From assembly GCA_965645245.1 (NCBI GenBank), contig OZ287072.1, forward strand, positions 2,542,001-2,606,000: a DNA stretch of 64,000 nucleotides, in the 5' to 3' direction. Shown here piece by piece: positions 1 to 50,500 of this stretch. A model generated the notes under the pieces. That model had not been told where the DNA came from. It saw only the letters and a program-made list of their open reading frames with translations, and did no database searches. The translations under genes were made by a program, and so were the position numbers. The stretch comes from Massalongia carnosa. Lineage: Eukaryota. Numbering within the stretch: position 1 is the stretch's first letter; every line of letters starts with the position of its first letter.

Positions 1-185
1 GTAAAAACATGGCTCGAAACAGACCCGAATTTCGTGTTGGAAGAAGATGGCGATTCAGGACATGGATCGGGGAAGGACGAGCATGGGCTAAAATACTACT
101 TCAACTGCCCTCGTTCTCCTGGTCTTTCTCCTATCGAAAATTGGTGGCAGGTGCCCAAACAACGGGTAGGTCGTCAACCTCATTG
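1..185 (+). pseudogene. Tc1/mariner-type DDE transposase fragment (catalytic C-terminal part), cut off by the copia LTR
   Basis: Frame 1 from base 1 reads VKTWLETDPNFVLEEDGDSGHG..HGLKYYFNCPRSPGLSPIENWWQVPKQRVGRQPH, matching the second-Asp motif and the SPDLxPIEN motif of Tc1-like transposases; not in the ORF track. Confidence 0.75.
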
Positions 186-350
186 TGTAGAAGTATGAGG
201 TTATTCATTTTTGTTATATTAATGATTCTATAACTCTGTCCTTCTAAAGTCTAAAATCATCCAAGTCCAGGATGCGTGCCGCATACCGGAATAGGTCTAC
301 TGTTACACGTGACCATAATAATGTCTAGCGCCATAGGTTGGAATCCAACA
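186..350 (-). repeat. 3' LTR of copia A (165 bp)
   Basis: Direct repeat of 5605-5767; adjacent to the PPT (CCCCCCC on + strand). Confidence 0.95.
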
Positions 351-504
351 CCCCCCCACAAGCTATGCGCTAGCTACGTAAGAATCGCCCACGCTAACGA
401 ATCGATTTTTATCTCGTTATTTTTTGGAAGAATCAGCAGCTGTTGGTTGCATCGGTTCATTGGTAGGTTGTGGCTCCAGGTAGTGTGGCTGTGCTGATTT
501 GGCT

Positions 505-3500
505 CTAGGTCATCTGCATCTGTTCGACAAAGGTGTGGAACTTTGCGTGCGTTAGAGCCTTCGTCAGGCCGTTGGCGATCATCTCCCCAGTTGGCACGTA
601 GGTCAACTCGATTCTCTTTGCCTCCACCTCGTCTCGGATGTAATGGTGCTGGATATCGATGTGTTTGGTCCTGGCATGGAATACTGGGTTGTGTGCCAGA
701 GCAAGAGATCCTTGGTTGTCACCTTTGAGTGAAACAGTGGGGTCTCCGTCGCTGGGCTTGAGGCTGTTGAGGTCTCTGTTGATCGCTTGTACGCACGAGT
801 TCTTGTTGGAGACCTTGATCTCAGCATGCTGTTGGTCCGCTTCCAACACCCCAAGCTCTGTGAGGAGTAGACGAAGCCAGGTGGCTTCTTTGGCGGTCAG
901 CGTGAGTGCGATGTATTCCGCTTCTGTGGAAGAGAGAGCAACTATTAATTGCCTTTTAGAGCACCAGCTTATCGGTCCCCCGTTCAGCATAAAGATGAAA
1001 CCGGATGTTGACTTCCGGCTGTCCTTGTCACCTGCTCAATCCGAGTCCGAATAGCCTTCGATTTTCAGTTCTTCATCCCCCCCATAGGTTACGCCTCGAT
1101 GTTTCGAGCCCTTGAGGTATTTGAGGATGGTTTTGACTGCTTCGGTGTGCTGATGGCTCGGGTTCTTGGCAAAGCGACTTACGAGGGACGTGGCGAAGGC
1201 AATATCTGGTCTGGTCTCTACCATGGAGAACATTATGGACCCCGTCATTCCTTGGTATCTCTCCTTCTCTGGTGGTGAGGCTTCTCCTTCCTCGCGTTGG
1301 GAGAGTGGCACAGATTCTTTCATCGGGGTGTTGACGGGGTTGGCTTTGTCAAGATGGAATCTCTCCAACACTTTTTCGATGTAGGCCGGTTGAGACAGTT
1401 TGATGGTTCGTTGCTTTCGATCCCGATCTATTCTCAATCCTAGGTAAAAGCTGATGGGACCCATATCTGACATAGAGAATGCAGCTGTGAGTTCTGCTTT
1501 GACTCGCTTGATTATCCCACTGTCCTTTAGCGCCAATCTTGATGTCATCTACGAAGACGCTGAGTATGGGGCCTTTCAGCCCTGCACCCGATACGAATAT
1601 ACTGTGGTCTGCGTGGATGCGTTTCAAGCCTAATTTCTTGAGGAGGAAGGCTAAAAAGCGTTCGTACCAGAGGCGGGGAGATTGTTTGAGGCCGTAGATA
1701 GCTTTCAACAGTTTGCAAAACATATTCTTTGTGGCTTCTGTCTCAGTTCCCTTTGGAATCTCCATATATATCAGTTGATCAATGAGGCCATAGAGAAAAG
1801 CCGTTTTTACGTCCATCTGGTCGATGTCCAGGTCGAAGAAGGCGGCAAGGGCGAACAGGGTTCTGAAGGCCATTGACTTCACCACGGATGCGTAGGTTTG
1901 ATCGAAATCAACACCAAACTGTTATAGGTACCTTTTGATAACCCATCTGGCTTTGAATCTAGATACCTTGCCTTCGACATCACGTTTGACCTTGTACACC
2001 CACTTCCCCCCCAGAGGTCGATGACCTGACTCCATCTCGTTCTTTGGTATGAGAACCCAGGTCTTGTTTTCGTGTAGAGAGTCTATTTCTTCTTTCATTG
2101 CCTGTGCCCACTGCGAGGCGTGGGGGCATTGCATTGCCCTGTTGTATGACTCAGGTTCTTCGACATCTAATTGGGTGGCAAGGACGTAGTCTCCATTACT
2201 TTGGGCGTTGGCCTGAATGAGCCTCTAAGTTAAGATTCTGTATGGGTCGTCGTCTGCGTCATGACCGTCCTCCTCGCATTCGATGTTTGTCAGGAACGCG
2301 TTTGCTTTTTCCTCCGAGTTGTGTTCCCAGTCAAGGTCTAGCAGCTTGCTGAGATGTACTATCAGATCTTGATCTTGAGCCTTTTGTGTAGGCCTAATCA
2401 TTCGGCCAGACCGAGACTTCCTTGTCTCCGTAGTTTCATTTGACGCTCCAGTAGTTTCATCTCTAGTAGTGACCTTTCGGCCCTTCCTAGGGGTTACTTT
2501 GCTGGGAGTTGACTCGCTTGCACCTGTTGCATTGTTGACCTTTCGGCCTACATCCAACATCTGTGTGTCGCTCGTCGCCTCGTCATCGTCATCGGAGAGT
2601 AAGAAACCTGAGAAGGTGGGAGTGTTTTTGTATTCAGGAAGCTCGGTGGACGTCTTGGCCTCGTAGTCTTCAAAGATTCTGAGATCTTTGATGCGAATGT
2701 CTTTGTTCTGTTCTCGGATGTGGACTCTGTAGATTGTGTGACCATCGTATCCAACAAGAGTACCGCGTAAGGCTCGTGGGTTCCACTTCTCAGACTTTAA
2801 GGCTCGTTCCTCTTCGTGTAGGAGAACGTACACTGTCGAGCCTAACACTCGGAGGTGTTGGATATCTGGGTGGATTTTCTACTGTGCATGGTAGGGGTTG
2901 TCTCCACCTAAAGCCTTCGTGTGGCGAACGTTTTTGACGTACGTCATCGCAAGAACAATTTCAGGCCACAGCTCGTCATCAAGGCTTCCCTCTAGGATTG
3001 TCGCTCTTGTCATATCCATGATGGTTCTTCCCATTCGTTCTGACACGCCGTTTTGTTCCTGAGAGTACGGTGCTGAGGGTTCAAAAGTGATGCCCTTCTT
3101 CGCAAACCATTCCTCTACCCTTTTGCTCTGCAGTTCTGATCCATAGTCTGAACGTAGGCGTTCGACTAGTCTCCCCTTGTGTGACCTGGTTTTGCAGAGG
3201 TTGTAGAAGGTCTTGAGACATTTGAACCAATCGCTTTTCCGGGCACCAGTGTACACTTCGGTATATCGCGTGAAGTCATCCGTAAATGTGAAGAAGTATC
3301 TCTCTCCTCCAAAACCAACAGGGTTGATGGGACCTACTAGGTCTGTGTGTATAAACTGGTACGCCTCGCTTGCTCGTTTCTGAGGCTCGTGGCGGTTGTA
3401 GATTTTTGTGGCTTTCGCACGTTGGCAGCTGTCACACTCGTACTTTTCTGAGTCGTCCACGTAGTCGATCTCGAGTTTGTGGAGATGTTGCTTCAGTGAG

Positions 3501-4033
3501 GGGAAGTTGAGGTGGCCGAGTCGTTTGTGCCAGGTGGTGAGAGGGAGTTTTGATGAGGTGGTGGTCCTGTAGGCGTGTGGTGGCCACTCGAACGTATTGT
3601 CGTCGATCTGCTTTAGATGAGTTGCAGAGACAGAGAGGTTGAGAGGGTGAAGAAGGAAGCTGGTCCTCCACCTTTCGGCGTAAGCCAGAGTTTCCTTTGT
3701 TCTTCTATCATAGAGTGTCTCGTTCTCATTATCATAGAAAATTCCATGAATGTTGAGAAGGCCGAGGCTGACAAGATTAGAAGGACTGTGGGGAAGGAAA
3801 AACACGTTGTTCAGGTTCAGGATCACTCCTTCGCGACCGTCTTTCAGGCTGAGGCGAAGGCGCACCTTTCCACGGCCTGGTGAAACCCCATCTGCAGTTG
3901 AGCCTCCGATCTGGGTAGGCTTTTCGTGGTACTCAGTCATCAAGCTTCGATCATTGCACACGTGCACGTCCGCCGCGCTGTCAACCAGCCAGGAAGCGTC
4001 TCTCGGCCCTTTGACCGCTAGCACCTTTGGTTG
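505..4033 (-). pseudogene. pol: copia A pol (protease, GAG-pre-integrase/integrase, RT, RNase H) with stops and frameshifts
   Basis: WLVDSAA protease; WHKRLGH..CDSC and HTDLVGP..SDYGSE..QNGVSER integrase; [46 protein letters not shown] RNase H; split over ORFs 2879-4024, 2225-2848, 1922-2134, 1349-1885, 1036-1548, 505-990. Confidence 0.95.
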
Positions 4034-4990
4034 TCAACTTTCGCGGGACGGGGTCTCGGAAGGGCTCTCTGTCTGGCTTTGGAGGTTTTGCCTAGAGCCT
4101 TTTGTTCTCATCTGGTGCAGCGAGTGTTTTGGCCGAAGTTCGGGGTATCTCAGGAAACAACGGTCTGTGTAGTGCTGTGTATTTCCCTTCTTGATGTAAT
4201 CTGGGTTTGTGCAGGTCCCCGGGGGTGCTCGATTACTAGGCTTTGGTGGTTTGGAGGTGAAGAGTGCCGATTGTTTGGGTGTGCCGGATTGTCCTGGAGT
4301 TTGGTCGTTCTCTTTCCTGATTTCTGCAAACCGGATAAGCTTTTTAGTGCTCTCGGCGATGTTTGTGTTCCCCATTTTCCACTCTGTCTCCATCATGGAG
4401 ACGATCCCCGAGTATTCGTTTCCCATTCCAGTGAGCAGTCCTGCCTGCAGGAGTACCTCGGCTCCTTTTGCGGGAATCTCGGAATCAGTGGGAATGAGGC
4501 CGCACACAGTGTCGTAGGCCTCTTGGTATTTGCTGCAATATTCGTGAATGTCTGTGCAGTCCGATAGTCGTAATTTGGTGGTCTCCAGGATGAGTCGCGA
4601 GATGCTCATTGGAGAGATGTGCTGAAATTTCGTTTGTAGGGTTTCCCACATTTCCTTGGCCTCTTTGCCCTCGATAGCTGCTTGGTGTTTGGAGGCTACC
4701 GAGTTTTTGATGATGCCCTCCGCTTTGCTCAGGGAGGCTCGGTGCTCTTTAATTTCGGTGGAGAGGGCAGTCCAGAGTGCTTGGGCCGTCATTTCGGTGG
4801 GTTTGAAGCCCATGGCTATGATGTCCGATCTGACGGACTCCTTCGTTGGCTCTGGCTTTCCGGTGACTGCCCAGGCGCAGTTCTTCTGCTTGAGCTCTCC
4901 CAGAATGTAGGATCGCCATAATGTATAGTTCTCGGAGCCTTGGAGAATGATGCGGGGAGCCTTCTCCTGCTCTTCTCGTCGGTCTGACAT
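4034..4990 (-). CDS. gag: copia A Gag
   Basis: Open frame from ATG at 4990 (MSDRREEQEK..ENYTLWRS..AKEMWETLQTKF) with a degenerate Zn-knuckle (CTNPDY..HYTDRC), ending in TGA in frame with pol. Confidence 0.85.
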   Translation of the reverse strand: MSDRREEQEKAPRIILQGSENYTLWRSYILGELKQKNCAWAVTGKPEPTKESVRSDIIAMGFKPTEMTAQALWTALSTEIKEHRASLSKAEGIIKNSVASKHQAAIEGKEAKEMWETLQTKFQHISPMSISRLILETTKLRLSDCTDIHEYCSKYQEAYDTVCGLIPTDSEIPAKGAEVLLQAGLLTGMGNEYSGIVSMMETEWKMGNTNIAESTKKLIRFAEIRKENDQTPGQSGTPKQSALFTSKPPKPSNRAPPGTCTNPDYIKKGNTQHYTDRCFLRYPELRPKHSLHQMRTKGSRQNLQSQTESPSETPSRES

Positions 4991-5070
4991 TTTGTGGTTT
5001 TTTGGGCGAAGATTTCTCAACGCCTTTGGGTTGTAGGAAGGTGGGTTGCCTTGTAGCTGTTGTGGTATGC

Positions 5071-5365
5071 GAGCGTCTTCGCTTCGTAACCTTTGGTATA
5101 TGAGCAAGTTCTCCGCCTCGTAGCCTTCGGTATGTGAGCGTTCTGCTTCGTATGAGCGTCTTCGCCTCGTAGCCGTCTGGTATGTGAGCGTCTTCGCTTC
5201 GTAACCTTTGGTATATGAGCAAGTTCTCCGCCTCGTAGCCTTCGGTATGTGAGCGTTCTGCTTCGTATGAGCGTCTTCGCCTCGTAGCCATCTGGTATGT
5301 GAGCGTTTGCCTCGTAGCCTTTGGTATATGAGCGTTCTACTTCGTATCCTTTCAGTATGTGGGCG
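5071..5365. repeat. Tandem repeat in the copia A leader: ~30-bp monomers forming a duplicated 115-bp unit
   Basis: GAGCGTCTTCGCTTCGTAACCTTTGGTATATGAGCAAGTTCTCCGCCTCGTAGCC... starts at both 5071 and 5186. Confidence 0.9.
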
Positions 5366-5604
5366 TAGCACTCTTCCTATCTATTGTGGTAGGTGGTCAG
5401 GCGCATTGGCTTGATTCCACACCGCCATTTCAGAATTGGCTCCTTTTGGTAGCCAAGTGGTCTTAACCCTCCTGCCTCAAACCATTCCTCCTTTTCGGGT
5501 AGGAAGTTCTTCGTTCTAGGTGCTTTGCTCTGGGGGGTGTGGGGTATTTGTGGCCTGTCGCTAGCGAAGATTAATGAGCTTATGCGCTGGCCGGGCTCAT
5601 AACC

Positions 5605-5767
5605 TGTAGAAGTATGAGGTTATTCATTGTTGTTATATTTATGATTCTATGACTCTACTTCTAAGGTCTGAAATCCTCCTAGTCCAGGATGCGTGCCGCA
5701 TACCGGAATAGGTCTACTGTTACACGTGACCATAATAATGTCTAGCGCCATAGGTTGGTATCCAACA
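5605..5767 (-). repeat. 5' LTR of copia A (163 bp)
   Basis: TG..CA direct repeat of 186-350, abutting the PBS. Confidence 0.95.
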
Positions 5768-6222
5768 TCACCCATCATCACGAAAGCTCGCTCTGCAGTT
5801 GTTTAGGGTGCCCTCGGACGGTTCGCGGGACCCGTGTTGGATGAATCTATCGCCCGAGCACTTTTGTCGGAGCATCTCGTATCGGTGCAATTTTCGGAGC
5901 ATCTCGAACAACATGAGTGTCTTGAACGAGTTCGGTAAACTCGGGTCATGGGGCGGTTTCCTTGTCGTGGACGTACTGATCGGTCAAGCTTGTCGCAGGT
6001 ACGATTAAGATCTTCGTTCGCAACGGTTCTCGGTCCGAATACGGACCGTCATCCATGAAGGCCTTGTCGCCAGATGTCCCATGGCTATCATCAAACAGCT
6101 CGATGCCTTGGTCAATGATAGCCCGGATCCAAACGTGGCAGAATTCGCAGCTCAGAGAAACCCACCTGGGACTACTCGTCACGAACACCAACGCATTTGG
6201 ATCGATGCATTCCGTAATGTTC

Positions 6223-6257
<35 letters not shown>

Positions 6258-15700: not shown

Positions 15701-16160
15701 TCCAGGGATACAGTCAATACTTCATTACCTGCACCATCCGCTTCTACAGTTATACCGGCAGTGTCTGCGTTGTATAGCCAGCTATCAGCTGCGATCATTT
15801 CATTGAATAGCGAGCTTTTTTCCCCCTTTCCAGCCTCCGAGGGCGTAACCATCTCCGCCACTATAAGAACCTCAGAAACGCGCGTTTTCATGTCCGATGT
15901 CATGTTCTACGTATGTAGCATCGTTCTAATCCTCGACGTGCTCGTTGCCATTGCGTACTACTGGTACCGGCCGCAGCAAATTCTGCCGTACATGCCGACG
16001 ACTATAGCCAGCCTAATATGCACATTCGAAGGCAGCAGTCTCGCAGCTGCAGGCGGAATATGGGATGCCTCATGGCTTTTTGGATTCGGCAAATTCACCG
16101 GTATGGACGGTAAGCTGAGAGTGGGCATCGAGAGGTAGCCATTTGTGCAGCCGTTACCTA
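12732..16160 (+). pseudogene. DUF3433-type multi-pass membrane protein pseudogene
   Basis: Two DUF3433-like repeats (YLPTIVAIILSVMWSWVDLDTKRLEPYFQMSKPGGASA..; FLEPYWMLLNRMLCLLQPFEEL..LDLRYSSLPP) broken into many ORFs by stops, frameshifts and an apparent internal deletion. Confidence 0.75.
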
Positions 16161-16459
16161 AGTGCCTCCAGCCAAGGGACGAGGATAAGGGTGTGAAGAA
16201 AGTGAAGAACATGAAGAATGTTAAAACGAGTTCTTCAACTCCTGATCATCAAGAACACGGCGTTAAAGTTCAAAAAAATGAAGATTTACGATACTCGAAC
16301 AGACTTCTTCCCCCCCCCCAAAAAAACAGAGCAATGTTAAAAGGCTTAAACAAAGTCAATTTTCGAAATCTCGAAACCTCATTTATTTATGTGAAAGACT
16401 ATTTAAAAAAAAATTGAAAAAAAAAGATTTAAACTTCATATTTAAAACCACAATTTCAC

Positions 16460-18163
16460 CATCGGTCCTCCTCCTTCTACACCATCGGTCCTCACCGTGG
16501 GGCGACCGTCAAACATATAGATTTGCTCCTATCTCTTCGCATCAAAACAATGCTAATTTAACGCGTTCACACGCGTCGCAGACGTACGTACGGAAGAGGA
16601 TACGAAGGCCAACCGCCGGGGGGTCGAATGCTCGCGTCCCTGCACCATACTTCTAAGGGTTCAAGTCCCTTCATGCAGTCATCAGCTGGAAGAAGATGTG
16701 GACCAAAGGAGCCGCATCATCCCCCACCCGGACACAGTCGACACGCGCTCTAGCTCCTGAGAGTTCAAGTCTCCCCATGCAGTCATCAGCTGGGATCAAC
16801 AGAACGCGTAAAGGCACCGGGGCGAATGCTGTCACCTCAAGAAAACTCCATCTCGGAGCAGAATAACAATATCCCATTTAACAGGCCTGGCCTGTTAAAC
16901 AAAATCGAGGAAAACACAGAGTCACAAAACACATAGTCATCAATCACACGTTGTACAAAGCACACAATCACAGCACACAGTCACAAACACACAGTCACAA
17001 AACACACAGTCACAAAACACACAGTCACAAATCAATAACACGTCCCTGTGAAGGAGGTTCTGCGGGGGCTCGTTAAGGCAGATCTGCACCCCGTTAATAT
17101 CGGAGTACATATTTTAAGAGGTTCAAGTCCTTTCTAGCAGTCATCAGCTGAAAATAATGCATTTTGACACGGGCATGGTGTGGATTTGACACGGGCAGAC
17201 CTCGATGGATCACAAAACGAATGAAAAGAGTTCAGCGGAACTTCGTTAATATTGTTCTCGAAGATCTCGTTAATAAGATTTTCATAGACCTCGTTAACAA
17301 CGTTCGATCATACTCTTAAAGGTTCAAGTCCTTTCATGCAGTCATCGGCTGAAAGCTAGAGACGTACGACACGGGTCAGCTATGTCTATCACACGGGTCT
17401 CCTTCGTCTACAACACGGAGCCCTCCGGCTGAAAGAAATAAAACATATAGACACATAGTGTAGGGTCACACCCTACACGATACAAGGGATTTGGGTTATG
17501 AAAACCATCCGATTGATGGCTACCGTGAGCAACACGGCCCGAACCGGAGTCGTACCGGGGATGGTAGAGGCAACCTAGTCATCAAATAGGACACCCTTGG
17601 GACAAGAAGAGGGCAATATACGAGGAACCCGTTAATTGATAACAGTCTAGGCCCTGAGCTAATAGACGAATTTCAAACGAGCACTCCTCCGAGTTGTCCT
17701 CGACTCGTTTTGGTTAGTAGAGACGGGAAATCGATACTATACTGCCTGGTCAGGAGCATAGTGGTCGAAATCCCTGCGAGACATGGTCGGTTCATAAACG
17801 GGAGACCTTTATGAATAACGCGAAGTGGGCATAAAAAACCCGTGAGGCGTGGTATGCAATGGCGGCCACCGTACGGAGACCGTCTGCATAGCCCGAGAGG
17901 ACAGTATGCGCATGTCGGTTTATATAGAGCAGGGAATGTCTATCTCGCTCGTAACGAGACCCCGTCGGTTCGCCAGCGCATGGGCTACGGCTAGACTCGC
18001 CCTTGATATATGCTTAAGGAGTAAACTGGGTTTGACCTGGGCGAAAGGGACGTCGTTCACCCCAATCGTAGAATTCATCAATAGTCTTGGGCCGTAAAAC
18101 GCACCAGTGAGATGAACGAAAACTGGGATAGAGGCTTCACGAAGGAGATGTCAACTCTATTTT
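16460..18163 (+). ncRNA. Retrocopy of a putative large structured non-coding RNA (identity unknown, possibly Pol III)
   Basis: No credible ORF; four GTTCAAGTC B-box/T-arm modules; many hairpins with GNRA/UNCG loops and nested long-range helices; ends in hairpin + TTTT at the LINE junction; no T5 run on + strand. Confidence 0.6.
16910..17031. repeat. ~15-bp C/A-rich tandem repeat (CACACAGTCACAAAA)n
   Basis: Four near-perfect and several degenerate copies. Confidence 0.85.
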
Positions 18164-18170
18164 ATCATTC

Positions 18171-21100
18171 TTAGAAAAGGCAAAGAGAACAAACTTTCGT
18201 CAAGAAATCAATAAGGCCACCGAAACGCCTCAGGGCGAGATGCTTAGGGGCAGTCCCCCCCCGACCGTCCCCCTGTGTAAATCTTTGCTAGTAAACAGCC
18301 ATTTCACTGCTCATCCAGGGTGCGTACAAGCTAGTAATGCAACTGCCAACAGCACATTAAACTCTTTTCGGTTTAAATCGTATGACGTATTTATTGCTAC
18401 TAATAATTACCCTACTCGGTCTGATAAAGCATACCCTCACCCTCACCCTCACCCTCATCCTCACCCTCACTTACCATTTGCCCTTGCCCTAACCCTTTGC
18501 CCTCTCTAAATCTCTCCTTCCACTTATGCTATACCTCATATTATATATTTTACTACTTCTCATCGCGATGAAGTTCGATTCCACTTCTTTGGATGCACGA
18601 AAGCAACATGCCATTGCCCTTCTGTCCTCACCTCACCTTCTTCCTCCGCAAGAGAATGAGTTATTTGCGTCTTGGAAGGAGGCAAAGACTCGTCTTCAAG
18701 ACTATGCCTTCATTCAAGGCTTCGCGTTGATCACAGAAACTCACGATAAGAAAAACCATTTAGTCGTATTAGACTACACACGCCACCACAAAAGAGTTAG
18801 AAACACTAGAAAAGTAAGGGAGGAAGACCGGATGCGAGCCAATACCAAAGTTTCGTTCAATGAGTGCCCTTATCGCCTCCGTCTCAAAAAAAAAACAAAG
18901 ACAATGCATGGAGACTAATAGTTACTAACTCCGAGCACAATCATGAAATGGTCACTGATCCCTTTGCATTCAGAGAACACCATAGTAGGGACCCTGATCG
19001 AACAGATGCCCTAGATCAAGGGAAGAGTCTCCGTGCATCGTCAACCCAATATGGCCAAGCAGCGAGAATATTAGGAACCCAAGGACTCCGTCTGTCGAGG
19101 AGCGATTATTATAATCTCGCTCATTCGGAGGGAGCTCACACGCCTGAAGAAGAGCTTCTTTTTGCCTTGGGCTCGTTGAAAGACAGGGGCTTTCATGTAC
19201 GGTGTAAGGAAAAATATATTGTTAAGAATAATGTGCGTGAGAGACGGGTGATAGAACAAATTTTTTTTTGCAATGCGGAGCAAATTAGGCTGGGTCGACG
19301 TTTCGTGGTGGTTTTCTATTAGAAACCGATGCAACGTTCAATACTAATAAATTGAACTTGCCTTTATCCGTTTTGGTTGGAATCACTAACACCGACCTTT
19401 CGTTTCCCGTCGCTTATTGCTACATAACTTAATCCTACCTCAGGCAGCGCCGCCTCCATCTCTTTATAGTCTTAGCCAAAACGTGCGCGTCAGTCAAATT
19501 CTCTCTACTTCCTCTGCAACAACGCGAAGGTCTCGGGGTGTGGCGAAGAAATCAAAGGCTCGGTTGGAGTTGAGATCTCAGCAAAAAGTCGAGAAATCAG
19601 TCAAACAGGCTAGGGCTCAAGCGGGAAAGGAAACGGCGATGAGAAAGGTGGTTAAAACTAGAAAAGATGATGTATCGCAATTGGCTGACGAGTTTTTGGA
19701 GTTGAAGTCATCGCAATAGGTAGATTTGTAGATGTTGAATACACTTAGTCAGTAACAGCAACATTATTAATACGTAGTTTAACTGCTAGCTTGTACGCAC
19801 CCTGGATGAGCAGTGAAATGGCTGTTTACTAGCAAAGATTTACACAGGGGGACGGTCGGGGGGGGACTGTCCCTAAGCATCTCGGCCTCAGGGACTATGG
19901 CGGCTAGCGAAATGGGCCAAAGACAAAAGTCATCAATCTAGAGAAGTATCCAAAATGCCGATGCTAAAATTCAATGACCAAGTAGCAGACACGTTTGACC
20001 AAAAAGCCGAAATGCTGAAAGGTGTCTTCTTTCCCGCACCACCACCGGCCGACCTAAGCGACATAGAAGGATCCTTCTATCCTACATCGCCGCACTGCCC
20101 AATAATCATCACCAAGTCAGAAGTATCGACGGCCCTGAGTCGGCTCAAGTCCGATAAGGCACCGGGCCCAGACGGCATATCTAACGGAATACTCAAAGCA
20201 TGCAGCGAAATAATTGTCGAACTACTAACACCTCTGTTTCAAGCGTGCGTCACACACTCGTACCACCCGCGGGCCTTCAAAATGGCAAACACCATAGCGC
20301 TGAAAAAATAGGCAAAGGAGACTATACCACGCCGAAAGCCTACCGACCAATTGCACTGCTCAACACGCTCAGTAAAGTTATGGAATCCATCATTGGATCG
20401 AAAATAACCTATCTAGCGGAAAAACACCGGCTCCTACCCGACACACAGATGGGAGCAAGGAAGGGCAGATCCACAGAGTCAGCACTGGAACTGCTAACTG
20501 AACAGGTTCGCACGATTTGGGGACAGGGAAAAGACAAAGTAGCCACACTGCTAAGCATGGACGTCGCCGGCGCGTTCGATACGGTATCTCATCAACGACT
20601 AACGCACAACCTACGGAAAAGAAAAATTCCAAAATGGATCACCGACTGGTTAAACAGCTTTCTGAGCGATCGAAGCACCACTTTAGCAATAAATCGAAAA
20701 GTCACCGGGCGGTTTGCGGTAAGAACGGGTATCCCGCAGGGCTCTCCCCTGTCATCAATTCTTTACCTATTTTACAATGCAGATCTATTGGAAATATGTG
20801 ATCGACCAGGCAAAAATACAAGTGCCATAGGATTCGTAGACGACGCAAACATTTTGGCATATGGAAAAAGCACCGAGGAAAACTGCAAAACTCTAGAGGC
20901 AATACACAGACAATGTGAGACGTGGGCTTCCCGGCACGGGTCCGTATTCGCTCCGACGAAGTACGAACTCATACACTTGTCCAGAAATCCCAAAAGATTC
21001 AACATGACTGCATCCATCAATATTGCTAGCACCGAAATTGAACCTAAAACGGACATCAGAGTATTGGGCCTACAAATCGACACCAAATTGAAATGGGGAC

Positions 21101-22388
21101 CGCACGTTCGCAAAACGCAAGAGAAAATGGTCAAAAAATCCATGGCATTGACAAAAATTTCCACATCAACCTGGGGTGCCACCTTCGCCAAGGCAAGGCA
21201 GGTGTACAGTGCCGTGGTGCGTCCGGCCATGACATATGGGTCAACCGTATGGCACATGCCCAAAGAAGTCAAAAAGTCAAAAACGTCAACGAGCAAGCTC
21301 TCCGTCATGCAAAACAATTGCCTTCGCACCATTGCCTTCGCACCATAGCCGGTGCCTTTAAAGCCACTCCCATCTCAGTACTAGAAGCAGAGACATTCAT
21401 AACGCCCATAGACACGCATCTCGACATGCTACATGCACAGGCAAGGCACCGGCTCCGAGCCGGAGGCCAATTGAAGATCATATCCTCCGCATGCAACAAA
21501 ATAGCTGACAAACTTCGAGGCAAGGCAGGTCGCAAACGACTTCAAAAGCCCACCCCGGGAGAGCTGAAACACATCTGGGCCAAAAGCCTACTGATCGACT
21601 CAAAAATAGTTCAACCATCAAAGGCACACCCACCATGGTTCGAAGTCTACCCGGCGTGGCACCGTGAAGCTACCGTTGCGGCAACGGCCCGACACAAGCA
21701 GATGCAAACAATCAAAACACGACAAATGAAGGTCTGGAACGACTCGTGGTGCGCATATCAAAATCGCGCGTCATCGAACCCTCCATAGCACAATCAGTCC
21801 CACTGAGCAAAAAACGGCTGATAATACACACCAGCTAAAAAAGGCAGAAATCGCTCTAACAACACAAATCCGCACTGGCAAGATCGGGTTAGCTGACTTC
21901 CTCTACAAGCGACGGGTGCCCTCCGTCACCTCACCGGCCTTCTCATGTGGCTGGCACAGACAAACTCCAGAACATGTAATCATGTTCTGCAGACTTATTG
22001 ACAATAGAGAACAGATGTTTCGCGCCGCCGGCACGAGCGACTATCAGCAGCTGACCAAATCATCAAAAACTCTGAAGATACTAATTGCTTGGCTAATGAA
22101 AACAGGCTTATTGAATCAATTCTCACTAGCATCAACATTATTGTAAAATCAACAATAGTTGAACCTTTCTTTCTTTCTTCTCTTTTCACAAGGCATTACA
22201 GTTCCCACACGTCTTTTGCACTACGTCTCCCGCCCGACGTCGACCCGTAGTCACATCGGACGGGTATCAAGGGACATGATTTTTACACCTGTGAAAGGTT
22301 TTCCATGTAACATAACTTAGATAGCTTTGCCCGCATGGGCCGGCCTACGGCCGGTGTCATATCGGAATATGAATACATCATCATCATC
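18171..22388 (+). mobile_element. Tad1-clade LINE copy 1, 5'-truncated ORF2 (RT + C-terminal CCHC) with frameshifts
   Basis: KAKRTNFRQE..PQG|LWRLAKWAK joins across the MULE; KAPGPDG, YRPIALLNTLSK, GIPQGSPLS, FVDD, CGWHRQTPEHVIMFC; 3' hairpin CCGGCCTACGGCCGG and (ATC)n tail. Confidence 0.95.
18236..19884 (+). mobile_element. Mutator (MULE) element 1, internally deleted, inserted into the LINE
   Basis: 99-bp TIRs (18236-18334, 19786-19884); 9-bp TSD GCCTCAGGG (18227-18235, 19885-19893); transposase relic with FAR1-like region (CPYRL..HNH), ETDATFNTNKLNLPL..FPVAYC, then a jump to the C-terminus. Confidence 0.95.
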
Positions 22389-22675
22389 AAAACCACAATT
22401 TCACTTTTCTGTAATTTGCTTGTAATTATTAACAGTTTTGACGAAGCTGGTGAGAAGAGTTTTCAAAATTTTGATGAGATGTTTACTTATTGGTGCTGGC
22501 GCAAAAGGTGGTTGGGATGCAAAAGAAGTTGAACACGAGTACGTGCTGTTCGATCAATCTTTCATGTCATGCAATGCAGCGCTTCTTAACAGCAGACATT
22601 AAGATCAATTGCGAGAAAAGTGTTAACAAGATCTTTTGCGACGAACACATCTATGGAAAACAGCGATTAACCGTG

Positions 22676-38787: not shown

Positions 38788-41700
38788 ATGGGCTTACGGG
38801 TTTTATATCCATCAAAAGACGCTGGGAAGTCGGAGGTCATCAAGGCTGAGTGAGCCTTTATACATCGCCGCTCCTGTAACATACCGATATACTTACGTCT
38901 TCTACTCAGTATCGTTGCGGTTCATGGCCTCAATGGAGACCCGAAGAACACTTGGACGAGCCGTCAGACGAATGCCTTCTGGCTCAAAGACTTCCTTCCA
39001 CACGACGTACCTAATGCTCGGGTCATGACATTTGGATACAATGCTGATGCGGCATTCGGGAACACCACTGCAGATATCATAGATCATGCAAGGAGTTTGC
39101 TTAGCGGTCTGATTGATAAGCGCGAGGAAGATGATGTGGGTTGCCGATATTCATTAGATCCTGAAGACGCTAAGGCTAAGATATTTCTTAGGAGCTGCGC
39201 CGTCCTATTATATTTGTCGGACATTCGCTCGGCGGAATAGTGATTAAACAAGTCAGTGCTAAGTTTGATCAAGAGGCGTGTGTCTAATGTTGCGTAATCC
39301 AGGCGTTGTTTCAGGCAAAACTTGAGCATCGATACAGCAGCATCAGCGAGTCCACAATCGGGATTGTGTTTCTGGGAACTCCTCATCGGGGAAGCGAAAA
39401 AGCAGCATACGGAAAGGTTCTTGCAACTCTTGCTACGGCTGTTCTGAACAAATCATCGCCACGCCTTGTCAATGCTTTGCAAGTGAACAGTGAGGCGTTG
39501 ATGTCACTTACGACCAACTTTAGATTTCAGCTACCAAAATATCAGGTGTATAGCTTCTACGAGATGAAGCCAATGAAGATGCTTACTACTTTGGTAAGCA
39601 CCAAGATGAGAACTTTGCTTATAAATATAAACTTGACCAACAGAACAATTTTTACTAGATCGTGGAAAAACATTCTGCACTGTTAGAGATCGACGGAGAA
39701 GAACAGATTCCAGTGGACGCAAACCACGAAGAGATGTGCAAGTTCATGGAGCGCGAGGACGACGTATATGAGAAGCTTTTCAAGAGGGTTCGTAGGATGA
39801 TAAAGCAACAAGATAGCGTTCCTTCAAATAAATCCTGTACGTAGATTCAACCAAAGTACTCATTTAAAATGATTTTGCATATATGTTTTGCTCATGTGAA
39901 ACTAGATCTTTGCAGTTTCTCGTCCTATAACAAGCATTACTGTGTTCCTCTCAACCTAAGTACGATATTTACTGGCCGTGATGACTTAATTCAAAACATC
40001 TCTGAAGGGTGTTTACCCTTCGACAATGAAAAAATGCCTTCTAAGCAGAAAAGGTTTGTTTTGTTTGGCCTAGGAGGCTCAGGAAAGACTCAAGCCTGTC
40101 TTAAATTCGCTCAAGATTATCGGGAAAGGTAAGTGGTTAAACCCGAGAGCTTTCGGGCTTGTGTCTGTTACAGGACTGATGCTGAAGGTTAGGTTTTGGG
40201 GTATCTTCTGGATCGATGCGAGTAGCTACATTACAGCTCAACAAGGGTTTTTGGAAATATCTCGAACATGTGGAGTGAAAGAGGACCCTAAGGCTATAAG
40301 ACAATGGTTGTCGAATATTCAAGATCCCTGGCTGCTGATAATTGACAACGCCGATGACCCGTCTCTAGACGTCTCCGACTTCTTTCCGACAGGCAATAGA
40401 GGCTCCATCCTGCTCACTACTCGCAATCCTGACTGTAAGATCCACTCAACTGTAGGCTCGTGCAAGCTCGGACAACTGAACATGGACGAGGCCGTGACGC
40501 TTCTGTTGAAAGCTGCTGGGGCGGAAGATACAGCTGATGAGGATGCACGAAGGAAGGCAAAGCCTGTAATCCAGACGTTGGGCTTTTTGGCGCTTGCAAT
40601 CACTCAAGCCGGCGCATATATACGGCGGGGTCTCTGTAGCATCGAAGAATACTGTGACGTGTACACCCGTCGTCGGCAAAAACTGCTAAGGCATCGATCA
40701 GTTCAAGCGAGCTCCGATTATAAATATAGCGTGTACACGACCTGGGAGATCTCCATCGAAGCAATCGAGAAGAAGCGTGACGAGACTTCTCATAATGCTA
40801 TGGAACTCCTTCGAATATTTAGCTTCTTGCATTACGATGGGATTACCGAAGACATATTTGAGCAGGCGTGGAGAAATAACTATAAGAGAGAAGACTCGTT
40901 TCAAGACATAATTCATATGTTTTACATACAACCCCAACAAAAAGCAGGAGATTGGGATCCAACAATGATTCGAGAAGCGGCAGATCTTCTTGCGTCGTTC
41001 TCACTTATAAATTTAGGTAGAGAGAGAGATACTAAAAGGATTGATGAAACGGGGCGTCGCATGTCAATGCATCCATTGGTACATGTGTGGGCCAGAGACC
41101 GACTCTCGGAAGATCTTCAGAGATGTTCCTGGATAATAACCAGTTCCACCCTAGCTGCTACCATGTCTTGGGAATATGCGCTGACCGACTATCGCTTCCG
41201 ACGGTCTTTGCTGCCTCATATCGAGTCTTGCATAAGTCTTTGCAGAGATAAGCCGTTTCTTGACGAATACTCAGAGCTCAATCGTGTTAGTGTGGCGGAG
41301 GGGTTTGTGTTGGCGTTTCGTGAGAATGGCCGGCTGCAGGAGGCAATGGAATTGGGAGAAAAGGTGTTGAAGGCACGTCAGAGGACGCAGGGAAGCGAAC
41401 ATCCGGACACTCTCAGGACGATGAACAGTCTTGCAATTAGTCATAGCGATTTAGGACGCAAAAAGGAGGCAATGGAATTGCAAGAAAAGGTGTTGGAGGC
41501 ACGTCAGAGGACGCTGGGAAGCGAACATCCGGACACTCTCAGGACGATGAACAGTCTTGCAATTAGTCATAGCGATTTAGGACGCAAACAGGAGGCAATG
41601 GAATTGAAAGAAACGGTGTTGAAGGCACATCAGAGGACGCTAGGAAGCGAACATCCGGACACTCTCAGGACGATGAACAATCTTGCAAATAGTTATAGCG

Positions 41701-42911
41701 ATTTAGGACGCGAACAGGAGGCAATGGAATTGAACGAAACAGTGTTGAAGGCACGTCAGAGGACGCTGGGAAGCGAACATCCGGACACTCTCATAACGAT
41801 GAACAATCTTGCAAATAGTTATAGCGATTTAGGACGCAAACAGGAGGCAATGGAATTGAACGAAACAGTGTTGAAGGCACATCAGAGGACGCTAGGAAGC
41901 GAACATCCGGACACTCTCAGGACGATGAACAATCTTGCAAATAGTTATAGCGATTTAGGACGCAAACAGGAGTCAATGGAATTGAACGAAACAGTGTTGA
42001 AGGCACGTCAGAGGACGCAGGGAAGCGAACATCCGGACACTCTTTATACGATGAACAGTCTTGCAATTAATTATAGCGATTTAGGACGCAAACAGGAGGC
42101 AATGGAAGTGCAAGAAACGGTGTTGGAGGCACGTCAGAGGACGCTGGGAAGCGAACATCCGGACACTCTCAGAACGATGAATAGTCTTGCAATTAGTCAT
42201 AGCGATTTAGGACGCAAACAGGATGCAATGGAATTGAACGAAACGGTGTTGAAGGCACGTCAGAGGACGCTGGGAAGCGAACATCCGGACACTCTCGGGA
42301 CAATGAACAATCTTGCAAATAGTTATAGCGATTTAGGACGCAAACAGGGGGCAATGGAATTGAACGAAACAGTGTTGAAGGTACGTCAGAGGACGCTAGG
42401 AAGTGAACATCCGGACACTCTCTGTACGATGAACAATCTTGCAAATAGTTATAGCGATTTAGGACGCAAACAGGAGGCAATGGAATTGAAAGAAAAGGTG
42501 TTGAAGGCATGTCAGCGGACGCTAGGAAGCGAACATCCGGACACTCTTTATACGATGAACAGTCTTGCAATTAATTATAGTGATTTAGGACGCATACAGG
42601 AGGCAATGGAATTGCAAGAAACGGTGTTGGAGGCACGTCAGAGGACGCTGGGAAGCGAACATCCGGACACTCTCAGGACGATGAACAATCTTGCAAATAG
42701 TTATAGCGATTTAGGACGCAAACAGGAGGCAATGGAATTGAACGAAACAGTGTTGAAGGCACGTCAGAGGACGCTGGGAAGCGAACATCCGGACACTCTC
42801 ATAACGATGAACAATCTTGCAAATAGTTATAGAGATTTAGGACGCAAACAGGAGGCACTGGAATTGGATGAAAAGGTGTTGAAGGCACGTCAGAGGACGC
42901 TGGGAAGCTAA
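38788..42911 (+). CDS. Fungal NLR: SesB-like alpha/beta-hydrolase, NB-ARC, TPR repeats (multi-exon)
   Basis: Spliced N-terminus DIVAVHGLNGD..FWLKDFLP..ARVMTFGYNA..IIFVGHSLGGIVIKQ..IVFLGTPHRGS..VDANHEEMCKF; P-loop GLGGSGKT, WLLIIDNADD, LTTRN, LALAITQAG, MHPLVH; twelve 42-aa HPDTL repeats. Confidence 0.92.
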
Positions 42912-43075
42912 CATCCGGACACTCTTAAAGTGATGGACGACCTTGCTGTTAGTTATTATGGTTTTTGACGTAAACAGGAGGCAGTAAATTTGATAGAAGA
43001 GACGCTGAAAGCAAGTCAAAAGACGTTGGGAAGTGAATATTCAACTACCCTTCGTGCGATGAACAATCTTGCGGA
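41335..43075 (+). repeat. 126-bp tandem array encoding TPR units (12 translated, ~2 beyond a premature stop)
   Basis: Near-identical GGAAGCGAACATCCGGACACTCTC.. units every 126 bp. Confidence 0.95.
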
Positions 43076-43489: not shown

Positions 43490-43908
43490 ATGAGGTCAAC
43501 GCCGCCGGTCATCAACCACCTTCTCCCGTTTTAATCATGCAAGGTCGTAGAATAATGCAGAACTGGTTCCAAGAAGGGCTGCCCACGGGGACTCTGATTG
43601 AAGTATCAGAAAGTGGGTACATCACCGATGAAATAGCCATTGAAGTTTTGAAGCACTTCATTGCGAATACAAACTTGGGGCCTACAAAGCAGTGGAAATT
43701 GATGCTCATAGATAATCATAGGACTCATTGCACCCCTGAGTTTATAAAGCTTGCCAGTTAAAATCACATTCGCCCTCTCCCCCTGATACCACATCTGACT
43801 CATTGTATGCAACCCCTTGATATGGGCGTATTTCAACCCTATAAGCATTGGCATGATAAGGCTATCCAAGATGTCCTTGCAGAGTTCAACACTGAGAATA
43901 ATGAGAAT
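43490..43908 (+). pseudogene. Fot1/pogo DDE_1 transposase fragment
   Basis: SESGYITDEIAIEVLKHF..LMLIDNHRTH..*..HLTHCMQPLDMGVFQPYK. A probable element end with doubled CTACGCAGACCGCTT lies at 46681-47221. Confidence 0.8.
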
Positions 43909-44079
43909 GATGAGGGTGATGAGGGTGATGAGGGTGATGAGGGTGATGAGGGTGATGAGGGTGATGAGGGTGATGAGGGTGATGAGGGTGATGAGGGTGA
44001 TGAGGGTGATGAGGGTGATGAGGGTGATGAGGGTGATGAGGGTGATGAGGGTGATGAGGGTGATGAGGGTGATGAGGGT
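43909..44079. repeat. (GATGAGGGT)19 perfect minisatellite
   Basis: 171 bp of perfect 9-mers, read as (DEG)n in the transposase frame. Confidence 0.97.
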
Positions 44080-44157
44080 GATGAGGATGAGCAGTTTAAC
44101 TTTTATCAAGGGGGGTTATCGTCAGACTAGGAGTTAATATTAGAACGCGCAATTGAT

Positions 44158-46696: not shown

Positions 46697-47200
46697 TGTC
46701 AGGGGACTGGATTGGATGGTCAAGCTTTCTAATTGACTGAGTCTATAGCTACAGCTAGGCTAGATTGGCTATTCAAGACGTCGGACAAGGAGCTAGAACT
46801 TTCGAGGCTCGTCCCCTTCTTTTATATCTGTTCCTTACCTCCTTACCCCTTTGTTTCCTTGATATTCGATGTCTCCTATTCATCTCCTTTTCCTAAGTTA
46901 ATATGAAGACACCTAATGGGGACCGGGTAATTATGGTTTCGAAGATCGGAGGCGGAGCCGTACTCGATCTAACCGCATCGAGAAAGGTTGGAACAGCGCG
47001 CACTGACCAATGAAGCTGTGGTAGGTCCAATGAACCCGCGGTAGTTCCAATGAACCTGCGTTAGGTCCAATGAACCTGCGGTAGGTCCAATGAACCTGCA
47101 GTAGCTCCAATAAACCTGCGGTACGGTAGGTAGGGACAGGATAGAGGGGGCAACTACGGATAAGGCCGAGATCTTTTTGGTTCGAAGCCGTTTCATGACA
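46697..47200. mobile_element. Solo LTR (504 bp) with an internal 20-bp tandem repeat
   Basis: TGTCA..TGACA ends; 5-bp TSD GCTTG (46692-46696, 47201-47205); GTAGGTCCAATGAACCTGCG-like unit x5 at ~47021-47120. Confidence 0.88.
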
Positions 47201-47527: not shown

Positions 47528-50500
47528 TGTTGAATATCCAATTCCTACCAGCACAATGAATACCTATCAGTACGATGAACATAGCACCTACGGCTGTCCT
47601 AGTTGGACAGATCATCTACGGAAACCGTAGATGCCGCATTAGGCTTACTCCTAAGATAAGATAAGATCACCTCGCTTAGAAGGGGGTGACCAGTAATAGG
47701 AAAAGATTGCTGCCTAGCAACTCTTCATCCTTAACATCACGGTCATACATACCTTTATTATTACATAGCCATATAGCCATAGTCATATACCTATTTCAAC
47801 AGGTTATGAGCCCGGAAGGGTGCTATCGATTTAAACTAATCGAAACTTTTAATCCGCAGCTTCGCAGTGCAATCAGCTAAGCATCGTTCCTATTCAATGA
47901 ATCGTAGACACATGACTAAAATCTTTCTGTGTCTTTAGAAACGATCCCTTAAATCACATCAATCAGTTCTCTCTTCTGTACACAGCGATTTCTTGTCAGA
48001 AGCACAAAAACTGCGTGTTAGAAAGAGCATGAACACATTGATCGTACTACACTCAAGCCCTCGGACACCAAAGAGCTTGCTAAGCTCGATGGTCGAAGGC
48101 ACTCAAGTCCTCGGACACCAAAGAGCTTACTAAGCTCGATAATCGAAGGCACTCAAGTCCTCGGACACCAAAGAGCTTGCTAAGCTCGATGGTCGAAGGC
48201 ACTCAAGTCCTCGGACAGCAAAGAGCTTGCTAAGCTCGATGGTCGAAGGCACCCAAGTCCTCGGACACCAGAAGAGCTTGCTATGCTCGCTGGTCGAAGG
48301 CACTTAAGTCCTCGGACACCAGAAGAGCTTGCTAAGCTCGATGGTCGAAGGCACCCAAGTCCTCGGACACCAGAAGAGCTTGCTATGCTCGCTGGTCGAA
48401 GGCACTTAAGTCCTCGGACACCAAAGAGCTTGCTAAGCTCGCTGGTCGAAGGCACTCAAGTCCTCGGACACCAAAAGAGCTTGCTAAGCTCGATGGTCGA
48501 AGGCACTCAAGTCCTCGGACACCAAAAGAGCTTGCTATGCTCGATGGTCGAAGGCACTCAAGTCCTCGGACACCAAAGAGCTTGCTAAGCTCGATGGTCG
48601 AAGGCACTCAAGTCCTCGGACAGCAAAGAGCTTGCTAAGCTCGATGGTCGAAGGCACTCAAGTCCTCGGACAGCAAAGAGCTTGCTAAGCTCGATGGTCG
48701 AAGGCGCTCAAGTCCTCGGACACCAAAGAGCCCGCTAAGCTCGATGGTCGAAGGCGCTCAAGTCCTCGGACACCAAAGAGCCCGCTAAGCTCGATGGTCG
48801 AAGGCACCGAAGTCCTCGGACACCAAAGAGCTCGCTAAGCTCGATGGTCGAAGGCAAAAACAAGTATATTGCTGGCCCTGAGCGCCCAATTGGTTCAAAA
48901 ATCATCAAAGCGTCAGTTCACCCGTGGTTGAGTTCTGGACACGCAAAAAATACAAAATCCCTCGGACATCAAAGAGCTTAGTAAACTCATTGATCGAAGG
49001 CACAAAGACATTTCTTTTTGGCAATTATGCCTCCTTAAGGCACTAGATGAGATTGTGCGGCAGTTGCCTCTTATTATTTAACCGGCCTAAGGCCGGTTAA
49101 ATCAAATTGGAATAACCCTGCGCTCAATTTGCTTTTGGTCAATTGGACCCTTGAAAAAGCCGGAGTTGAAATTCTCATCATGGCAAACAAGCATGTTAAG
49201 CAAACAGGTTTCTCTGTTAAGACATCAAAGTGGACACTGGCTAAGGAGGGACTGTTTTTTCCTTGTCTATAAGAAAGGTCACAGATCCACATTCTTTCAG
49301 TCACTACTAAGTTTCTCGCCTTGTTCAATTGCTCCCCATTCTCCCATTATGTCTATCATAGATACGTCACATCTTTTGGAGAAAGCCGAAAGATATTCGG
49401 CATGGGCAAGCTATACGAAGGGCGTTCTGCTCAAGAACAACTGCGAAGGAGCCATTCTGGAGAATCAATCAGAAATCACCGCTGAAACCATCAAGGAAGG
49501 TTTAATACAAGCAGGCTTCGACGCCAAAGGTCTTTCAGTCAGCATCTTGGTAAAAGAACTGCGTGACTAGAAGAATAGACAGAAGGCCGAGATGACCAAG
49601 GCTATAGGAATCATTCACGGATTAGTTGCGGAGTGCCATTACAGCCTCATCGACAACAAGAATGTGGCAGAAATGTGGAAAATCCTGAAGGATAGATTCC
49701 AAGATATAGCACCAATGAGCATCAGCGACATCATTCTGAAGGTTAGTTCCAAGAAGATGACCGACTTCGAGACGACCAGTCTATACTGTGCATATTACGA
49801 GAGCGCTTTAAACAAGATTAAAGGAATGCTGGACGACAAGGCCAAAGTGGATGTGCATACCGTGGAGTTTATGCTTAAGGGAATGATGCTGGGTAACACC
49901 AGACGTCTATTCCCCATTGATAGCCCAACTTCGACGAGATTGAACATACGAAACCACAAACCTGTCGGAAGCAATGAAGACCATTATTGCTTATTATGTC
50001 AACATGAAAATCACCAAGGCACTTCATATCAGCACACCTGACTCAAGAGGTCGAGCCCCATCAGGGAACTGCACCTTCTCTTAATGTGTCAAGAGAAAGA
50101 ACACTCGTCATTGGCTAGATACCTGTTTGCAGAAGTTTCCACAGTTAAAAAGACATAGAAGTTCGCTCGAATCCGGAAGAGCAAAGGAACAAAAGACTAC
50201 CTCGTTAGAAACGAAGGCGGACTTATCTCATACATCAACCAACATTTCAACGACCATTGACACTCCAGATTTGAGGATGCATTTGAGCAAAGTGGACGAG
50301 GATACCTATCAAGGACTGGACGTCATTATCTGTTAAATCAAAACTCACTACATGGCATGGAAGGCTTGGTCATCTCAACATAGCAACGTGTCGAAAATAT
50401 CTGAAAACGCTAGACATAACGTACGATGACGATATCAACCACGGTTGGTTTTGCCATGCATGCGAAATGGGAAAAGCCAAAAAGATATACAACCGAACAC

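Follow-up and report, generated by a model that had tools for sequence, protein, structure and literature searches.

Cis-acting structured RNA with tRNA mimicry is a known kind of retroelement feature; its form in the leader of a long interspersed nuclear element (LINE), a retrotransposon of the type without long terminal repeats (non-LTR), appears to be new. The LINE described here lies in a 64,000-nt stretch of the genome of Massalongia carnosa (contig OZ287072.1, positions 2,542,001 to 2,606,000 of the forward strand; hereafter the window, in which all positions are counted). Its 5' untranslated region (UTR) holds four modules, each with a hairpin (P2) that looks like the TΨC arm (T-arm) of a tRNA, between a basal helix P1 and a further helix P3. 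One described counterpart is box B of brome mosaic virus (BMV), which is reported to imitate the T-arm of a tRNA and to undergo modification in vivo. Like the modules, box B is a TΨC-loop-like hairpin in the non-coding part of a self-copying RNA. PMC5869524 describes a bulged stem-loop that the virus's own protein 1a requires in cis for recruiting the RNA, and PMC5699540 reports binding of Pus4 to BMV RNA. The differences are that BMV is an RNA virus whereas the modules are encoded in the DNA of a LINE, that the module hairpin belongs as an arm to a three-way junction that also includes P3, and that the modules come in one to five copies on stalks with conserved loops of their own.

R2 and L1Tc are likewise non-LTR retrotransposons with conserved, structured RNA at the 5' end. 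R2 reportedly has a ribozyme like that of hepatitis delta virus (HDV) and a protein-binding RNA motif at the 5' end. For L1Tc, Pr77/L1TcRz is reported to be a structured RNA with ribozyme activity and a cis role at the 5' end of the LINE. Unlike these elements, the leader in the window has no match to an HDV-like or other Rfam ribozyme, and R2 and L1Tc are not known to have a T-loop motif or repeated units. In addition, the modules start 183 nt inside the element; its 5' end is thus not set by them, in contrast to the R2 and L1Tc structures.

LINE 5' UTRs are usually regarded as promoters with little conserved RNA structure. The monomer arrays of the mouse L1 5' UTR are tandem repeats of variable number that have been described as DNA promoter units; the modules are likewise tandem and variable in number, but their helices covary at the RNA level and their G·U signature is specific to one strand. 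With tRNA genes, short interspersed nuclear elements (SINEs) and B boxes the modules share GGTTCAAGTCC, which is the T-arm/B-box consensus, and a stem that pairs as in a T-arm. A tRNA folds into a cloverleaf, whereas in the module P1 joins the T-arm on the 5' strand and not on the 3' strand; compared with tRNA genes and SINEs, the modules sit inside a LINE leader and no A box was seen by eye. In open-access papers and bioRxiv we found no description of the motif or of a T-arm mimic in a LINE leader. Judging from the pattern of sequence change among its relatives, the four modules are very probably structured RNA units of the LINE 5' UTR. That the T-arm mimic of this cis-acting RNA serves as a repeated platform for protein recruitment is less likely than not; for the explanation as a whole, as a compromise between the two, we put the probability at about 0.55.

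A LINE insertion with modules in its 5' UTR

The modules lie within a single insertion of a multi-copy non-LTR retrotransposon (Table 1). The 16-mer AAAACCACAATTTCAC occurs exactly twice in the window, once at either end of the element, with 0 occurrences expected by chance. Contigs from four public sequencing runs were aligned to 16300-18100 and the summed contig depth was read at each position. The depth rises at 16457-16461 (X1, from 966 and 823 to 329,018; X2, from 81 and 64 to 6,245; X5, from 0 to 1,038), and for the family it amounts to hundreds of times the depth of the flank. Ahead of this point the loose ends vary from contig to contig, and the 5' end is common to the family copies. 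The depth jump and the varied flanks together indicate that the 16-mer is a target-site duplication (TSD). The TSD and the simple-repeat or A-rich tail by which a LINE is recognized are found here as a perfect 16-bp duplication, an (ATC)n tail directly preceding its 3' copy and the varied upstream flanks of the other copies.

The second mark of a LINE, an open reading frame (ORF) with an APE-type endonuclease (EN) and a reverse transcriptase (RT), is seen as an RVT_1 domain in the window and an EN domain in the relative L005. The Pfam RVT_1 match (E 6.9e-30) falls into ORF 20200-21348, on the strand of the modules and downstream of them. By tblastn, the proteins of two relatives, L005 and L008, match the EN-RT linker, the RT and the C-terminus at 19877-21975, with 44-51% identity across linker and RT core that falls toward the C-terminus; no N-terminal part of the endonuclease was found in the window copy with these proteins. 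An ORF piece similar to FAR1 and Mutator-like element (MULE) transposases is located at 18493-19322 on the same strand inside the LINE (Pfam AFT, a weak match of E 0.002). It occupies the place expected for the endonuclease N-terminus and could be an insertion or the product of a template switch. The initial annotation had seen in the modules a possible internal promoter for RNA polymerase III (Pol III); a free-standing Pol III unit is not supported by the position of the modules inside a TSD-bounded LINE, in its sense-strand 5' UTR and ahead of the EN/RT coding sequence.

Table 1. Positions of the LINE, its target-site duplications, modules and other leader features in the window
Feature	Position	Strand	Details and basis
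5' TSD copy, AAAACCACAATTTCAC	16444..16459	+	Exact 16-mer; upstream of 16457-16461 the DNA differs in other family copies
Short direct repeats at the 5' terminus, CACCATCGGTCCTC x2	16457..16496	+	Repeat search; repeat number varies among family copies ("goes back 37" joints)
Whole non-LTR (LINE) retrotransposon, 5.9 kb, degenerate coding part	16460..22388	+	TSDs, RVT_1, tblastn matches, (ATC)n tail
Module 1	16642..16701	+	P1, P2 (AAGGG UUCAAGU CCCUU) and P3 (CAGU CAUCA GCUG); covariance-model match 65.6 bits, E 8e-22
Module 2	16746..16805	+	GAGAG UUCAAGU CUCCC; covariance-model match 60.9 bits
15-nt tandem repeat AAAACACACAGTCAC x8.2, between modules 2 and 3	16911..17031	+	Tandem Repeats Finder; copy number differs among family copies
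Module 3, core	17104..17163	+	Covariance-model match 59.0 bits; stalk ~17063-17203
Module 4, core	17305..17364	+	Covariance-model match 59.7 bits
Conserved, predicted structured ~650-nt domain of the same 5' UTR, apparently non-coding	17440..18100	+	Identity, RNAalifold, no frame
Fifth-module remnant	17628..17685	+	CGTTAAT..CAGTC.. retained, T-arm hairpin deleted; alignment columns ~224-330
Broken ORF2 remains: EN-RT linker, RT, C-terminal Cys/His region	19877..22146	+	Pfam RVT_1, tblastn, ORF list
3' TSD copy	22389..22404	+	Perfect 16-bp match to the 5' copy

In a repeat search the modules form one direct-repeat family of four 47-nt copies (16646-16692, 16750-16796, 17108-17154 and 17309-17355) that are 77-87% identical to the reference copy; on the sense strand they cover element positions 183-905. 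The pattern TTCAAGTCYYYNNNNGCAGTCATC has four matches in the 64 kb, all on the plus strand, compared with 0.00 expected from 100 shuffles. The four places given in the initial annotation thus held, as did the stems it had quoted (AAGGG/CCCTT, GAG(AG)/CTC(CC), AGAGG/CCTTT and AAAGG/CCTTT), TTCAAGT as the invariant loop, GCAGTCATC(A/G)GCTG after each hairpin and CATAYTYYT ahead of three of them. Its description of the spacers as unrelated did not: they hold nested CGTTAA.. and ..ACACGGG motifs that pair across the module, as well as the 15-nt tandem repeat.

The copies differ in how well the fold is kept. For module 1 the minimum free energy (MFE) fold of 16596-16745 yields P1, P2, P3 and an outer stem. 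Module 2 has a weak P1 and one A·C mismatch in P2. The stalk of module 3 contains two nested internal loops (CGUUAA.. / ..ACACGGGCA), and the full nested architecture is returned by the MFE fold of 17058-17207. Module 4 is accompanied by three CGTTAA motifs upstream (~17241-17300) and three ACACGG motifs downstream (~17370-17425), and its P1 is weakened. At 17116 in module 3 the family majority carries U, which is the otherwise near-invariant junction U, and a family-majority G at 17353 restores a C-G pair in P1 of module 4. The window copy therefore seems to be a slightly damaged instance of the family. Where the window has the fifth-module remnant, L005, L006, L029 and L033 possess an intact module.

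Relatives were collected by scanning metagenome contigs with GTTCAAGTCYYYNNNNGCAGTCATCRGCTG, which gave 35 loci on 32 distinct contigs; neither IMG/VR nor 596 Gb of prokaryote genomes contained an exact match to the same pattern. Many of the loci hold two or three module copies, spaced 116-183 nt or more. Of the 35 loci, 19 (on 17 of the 32 contigs) have a tblastn match to a LINE endonuclease or RT, in every case on the module strand and downstream; none of the 35 has one on the opposite strand or upstream. The other 16 have no match at all, and most of these are short contigs or carry the module near an end. In L005 four modules precede ORFs with Exo_endo_phos_2 and RVT_1, and L008 has RVT_1 and RNase_H. 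The similarity between L005 and L008 begins 168 nt ahead of the first module, in agreement with the 183-nt offset in the window.

Differently deleted derivatives (L008; L007/L022/L035; L001/L019/L024; L012; L033) all retain the modules. They comprise forms in which the leader is joined to the RT C-terminus or to the last ~60 aa only, and forms missing the endonuclease. Retention of the leader in independently deleted, non-autonomous derivatives would fit, without proving, a requirement in cis. A 200-aa frame of L035, L007 and L022 that was considered as ORF1 turned out to be the RT C-terminus. In nine loci (L001, L002, L011, L013, L019, L021, L026, L027, L033) the module and a two-layer stalk are arranged in head-to-tail 183-nt repeats of at least 2-3 copies, and most loci of this kind are internally deleted derivatives retaining only the end of ORF2. 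A TATA-like motif (CATATAGA, 16514-16521) lies inside the window element, ~55 nt from its 5' end and ahead of the modules; in L007, L014, L020, L022, L025 and L035 a TATA-like motif ATATATAGAGCAGTACCCCAT is found upstream of the first module.

Fold and covariation of the modules

For the analysis of the fold, 50 distinct copies were aligned gap-free over 60 columns. The model comprises P1 with 8 pairs, a junction U, P2 with 5 pairs and the loop UUCAAGU, a 4-nt junction ending in G, P3, and then the 3' strand of P1. P3 itself consists of CAGU, the loop CAUCA and GCUG, with an invariant U·G pair. Standard pairs occupy 83.8% of the cells. Shuffling the partners leaves 74.0±0.8% (0 of 500 shuffles reach 83.8%), and sliding them by 1-3 columns 40.5-52.7%. 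Changes on both sides of a pair are found in 139 cells, compared with 57.7±10 in the shuffles. The best-kept helix is P2, where 97.2% of the cells are paired, four of the five pairs change on both sides and 28 strand combinations occur, including GGAAG/CTTCC and the transversion swap GATGG/CCATC. This bears out the earlier statement that the stems covary around an invariant 7-nt loop.

The sequence of P1 varies from copy to copy, and its inner four pairs alternate freely between U-A and C-G. Overall P1 is paired in only 67.8% of cells because bulges blur its outer part in an ungapped alignment. P3 is nearly invariant; its variants are a swap from C:G to G:C in two copies from L029 and a change from U·G to U-A in L003. 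In most cases the junction is placed atop a stalk that is long and irregular and contains between one and three asymmetric internal loops, which are conserved (5' CGUUAAKAC / 3' ACACGGGCA). From 18 longer sequences the outer stalk was resolved into the helices CUCGU/ACGGG and UGG/CCA around the asymmetric loop UAAUAC/AC, plus an outer stem. The extended stalk is paired in 77.6% of cases, against 34-49% with slid partners, and 26 of its 36 pairs change on both sides.

A T-loop motif is defined by a closing G-C pair and the loop U-U-C-R-A-N-N, which corresponds to tRNA positions 54-60. In the modules this reads G UUCAAGU C: among the 50 copies neither the closing G-C nor six of the seven loop positions ever vary, and the remaining one, the loop C (C21), is conserved in at least 90%. 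From these comparisons each module is a predicted three-way junction of P1, P2 and P3 in which the P2 loop has the sequence pattern of a tRNA T-loop. The term tRNA mimic used in the initial annotation is fair for the P2 hairpin, a T-arm look-alike with a covarying stem that appears to be under selection.

The fold also has a polarity. G·U pairs outnumber A·C mismatches in all three helices, by 25:4 in P2, by 52:2 in P3 and, counting its four inner pairs, by 12:5 in P1. This excess indicates that the selected fold belongs to the plus strand, i.e. to the sense RNA of the LINE, and not to duplex DNA or to an antisense RNA. Several other structures were considered and dismissed. A pseudoknot between the junction J23 and the T-loop (CUUG/CAAG) is sterically implausible and J23 is not conserved; a kiss between the P3 loop and the T-loop has no complementarity. 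By eye, a hammerhead core (CUGAUGA on the minus strand) and loops resembling a hairpin ribozyme (A|GUC, GUUAAUAC, AACAC) do not fit the helix topology and have no Rfam support. For a minus-strand cluster of C/D small nucleolar RNAs (snoRNAs) the sole match was noise (snoR32, E 7.8), and the G·U excess over A·C favours the plus strand.

The asymmetry and the covariation bear on a reading at the DNA level, in which the modules are B boxes, i.e. TFIIIC sites similar to extra TFIIIC (ETC) loci, which would either drive Pol III transcription of the leader or form an insulator or barrier shielding the LINE promoter from silencing. The B-box consensus is GGTTCRANTCC. It fits modules 1, 3 and 4 (GGTTCAAGTCC), module 2 having A..T at the outer positions; GG..CC is kept in 37 of the 50 copies, and an element holds more than one copy. 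In 11 of the 50 copies, however, the G:C of the consensus beside the loop becomes A:U, so that pairing is kept and not identity, and covariation in P1, P3 and the stalk as well as the preference for G·U over A·C would serve no purpose in TFIIIC binding. No A box was seen at tRNA-like spacing by eye, without a formal scan. The earlier observation that the leader lacks a run of five T (T5) is correct, since the plus strand has none in 16460-19158 and the first appears 2.7 kb into the element, but it carries no weight as Pol III evidence because just 0.75 T5 starts are expected by chance in 1.64 kb; T5-T9 runs occur further inside the 5.9-kb element. ARAGORN predicted 0 tRNA genes in the window, as had been anticipated, and 0 in 31 related loci, where only the T-arm-like hairpin and no cloverleaf is present. 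Taken together these results make DNA-level B boxes a very improbable explanation.

A similar argument applies to promoter monomers, i.e. DNA-level promoter or enhancer units for RNA polymerase II as in the mouse L1 5' UTR, whose invariant parts would be factor sites such as the E-box CAGCTG. Tandem units of variable number with 116-183 nt periods are indeed found at the 5' end of this LINE, a LINE requires an internal promoter, and CAGCTG and TGACTG-like motifs are invariant. Yet a factor site predicts neither compensatory changes in the flanking inverted repeats nor the asymmetry between G·U and A·C. We regard promoter units as quite an unlikely account of the modules; a promoter role that coexists with the RNA role is plausible.

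A covariance model built from the aligned copies scores the four window modules with 59.0-65.6 bits, and the next best match in the window has 10.9 bits. The model recovers 80 copies from 30 sources, and all of them share one context and one orientation. This finding speaks against the possibility, raised in the initial annotation as the case that would undo it, that the modules are decayed tRNA or SINE fragments, and also against a functionless chance repeat. A T-arm sequence could in principle come from a tRNA gene, but 0 copies are expected by chance, the context within the LINE and the orientation are constant, the covariation is strong and ARAGORN identified no other tRNA parts in the window or the 31 loci. 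We have therefore rejected this explanation as extremely unlikely.

Finally, the modules might act in RNA processing, either as substrates that RNase P or RNase Z would take for a tRNA or as a new self-cleaving ribozyme, cutting the leader or defining the 5' end of the LINE RNA. A T-arm mimic stacked on P1 would resemble an acceptor/T minihelix, the tandem 183-nt arrays recall ribozyme satellites, and 5' ribozymes have been reported for R2 and L1Tc. Against this stands the 5' end of the element, which lies 183 nt ahead of module 1 and is common to many copies with different flanks; among the loose ends listed none is located at a module. Rfam, which includes hammerhead, hairpin, HDV-like, twister, pistol and hatchet models, gave 0 matches in the window at the gathering score. 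At E<=10 no ribozyme was matched in the window region or in 8 loci, the former returning only noise (snoR32, E 7.8; SpR10, E 2.1) and the latter 0 matches. Moreover, the connectivity is unlike that of a tRNA, since in the module it is the 3' strand of the stack that bears the insertion, and the length of P1 is not fixed. Likewise, the earlier suggestion of a precursor cut into separate RNAs does not agree with family copies that keep everything from the shared 5' end at 16457-16461 through all modules, which indicates that the reverse-transcribed RNA was not cut at the modules. A processing role is thus very unlikely.

Several observations weigh against a structured RNA with a recruiting T-arm mimic. 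In single-sequence folding there was no thermodynamic excess for 71-nt windows on either strand (z +0.14 to +1.04) nor for the four 150-nt modules (z -1.59 to -0.11), and MFE folds fail to give the model for modules 2 and 4 and for L029, although modules 1 and 3 and L010 do. The pattern used for collecting copies fixed the loop and P3, and only 30 of 66 distinct copies from a looser search lie outside the exact pattern, so that invariance in these parts is partly due to ascertainment. Many copies are close kin (183-nt family) and the cell counts are thus not independent events. P1 joins a pyrimidine-rich to a purine-rich strand, which makes chance pairing already high, and the covariation in P3 depends on two copies from one locus. 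The same sequence matches the B-box consensus in three of the four window modules and may have a second role at the DNA level. In addition, the LINE in the window is decayed, with broken ORFs, no endonuclease N-terminus found and a foreign MULE-like piece inside, and its modules are probably relics.

The downstream domain and possible roles of the leader

Downstream of the modules the same 5' UTR continues with a conserved domain of ~650 nt. Its parts 17447-17607 and 17709-18089 have 67-88% nucleotide identity to most loci over high-scoring segment pairs (HSPs) of 34-499 nt, the range being 67-76% for HSPs >100 nt, and many positions of the domain are invariant. A six-frame comparison of 17440-18100 with its relatives revealed no consistent frame, just short matches in shifting frames. 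From 10 sequences RNAalifold predicted 120 pairs in the domain, 55 of them with compensatory changes; this covariation is extensive, though the RT proteins of the same elements are ~45-55% identical. Rfam returned no match to 17440-18100 at E<=10. In L008 the ATG of the ORF is located at the end of the domain. With this conserved domain following them, the modules appear as part of a structured leader of ~1.6 kb that ends at the start codon, and by the predicted pairing modules and domain together make up one folded leader. Of the two, the ~650-nt domain may be the more important RNA. The result is a multi-copy fungal LINE family with a ~1.6-kb leader in which helices covary while sequence drifts, and two candidate RNA families, the modules and the ~650-nt domain, that are absent from Rfam.

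Regarding the role of the modules, loop and closing pair read GUUCAAGUC in every module of the window, which by its sequence fits the Pus4/TruB consensus GUUCNANNC. The same consensus is given for Pus4 in PMC5699540, where it is called "consistent with a T-loop-type structure". As a repeated unit, the T-arm mimic may be a platform for protein recruitment. The following mechanism is a tentative proposal, with box B of BMV and the 5' protein-binding RNA of R2 as precedents: on the full-length LINE RNA, T-arm mimic and repeated internal loops would together act as a multivalent platform for recognition by a partner that is either encoded by the element or a host protein binding T-arms, such as a Pus4-type pseudouridine synthase. 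Repetition of the module would raise avidity, and the bound protein would mark the LINE RNA for assembly of a ribonucleoprotein (RNP), translation or full-length reverse transcription. If the modules are such a recognition or translation element, they would open a way to study how its own full-length RNA is labelled by a LINE (cis preference), and they would be the second natural case of T-arm mimicry by a selfish replicator after box B of bromoviruses.

A wider interpretation takes the modules and the ~650-nt domain as one large undescribed functional RNA that is required in cis by a fungal LINE family. It would hijack the tRNA machinery (Pus4, TFIIIC, export or translation factors), contain a domain that is catalytic or resembles an internal ribosome entry site (IRES), or do both. 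We consider this rather unlikely; if true, no tRNA T-arm mimic would have been known from a LINE leader before it.

Further features of the window

Upstream of the LINE a DUF3433 ORF ends at 16138, in line with the fungal origin of the window; lichen metagenomes are among the public sequencing runs that contain this stretch, and the fungus is probably lichen-associated. A second, related LINE copy is found on the minus strand at 46361-44574; it is 5'-truncated, has a 692-aa open frame and is without modules. Upstream of this truncated copy are two non-coding tandem arrays, one of 50-nt units at 48050-48856 (16 copies, 94% matches) and one of 20-nt units at 47007-47123 (5.8 copies). A 126-nt (42-codon) repeat at 41337-42925 comprises 12.6 copies with 92% matches within a 916-aa ORF (40161-42911), and just 3' of it a perfect 9-nt repeat occurs 20 times at 43908-44090.

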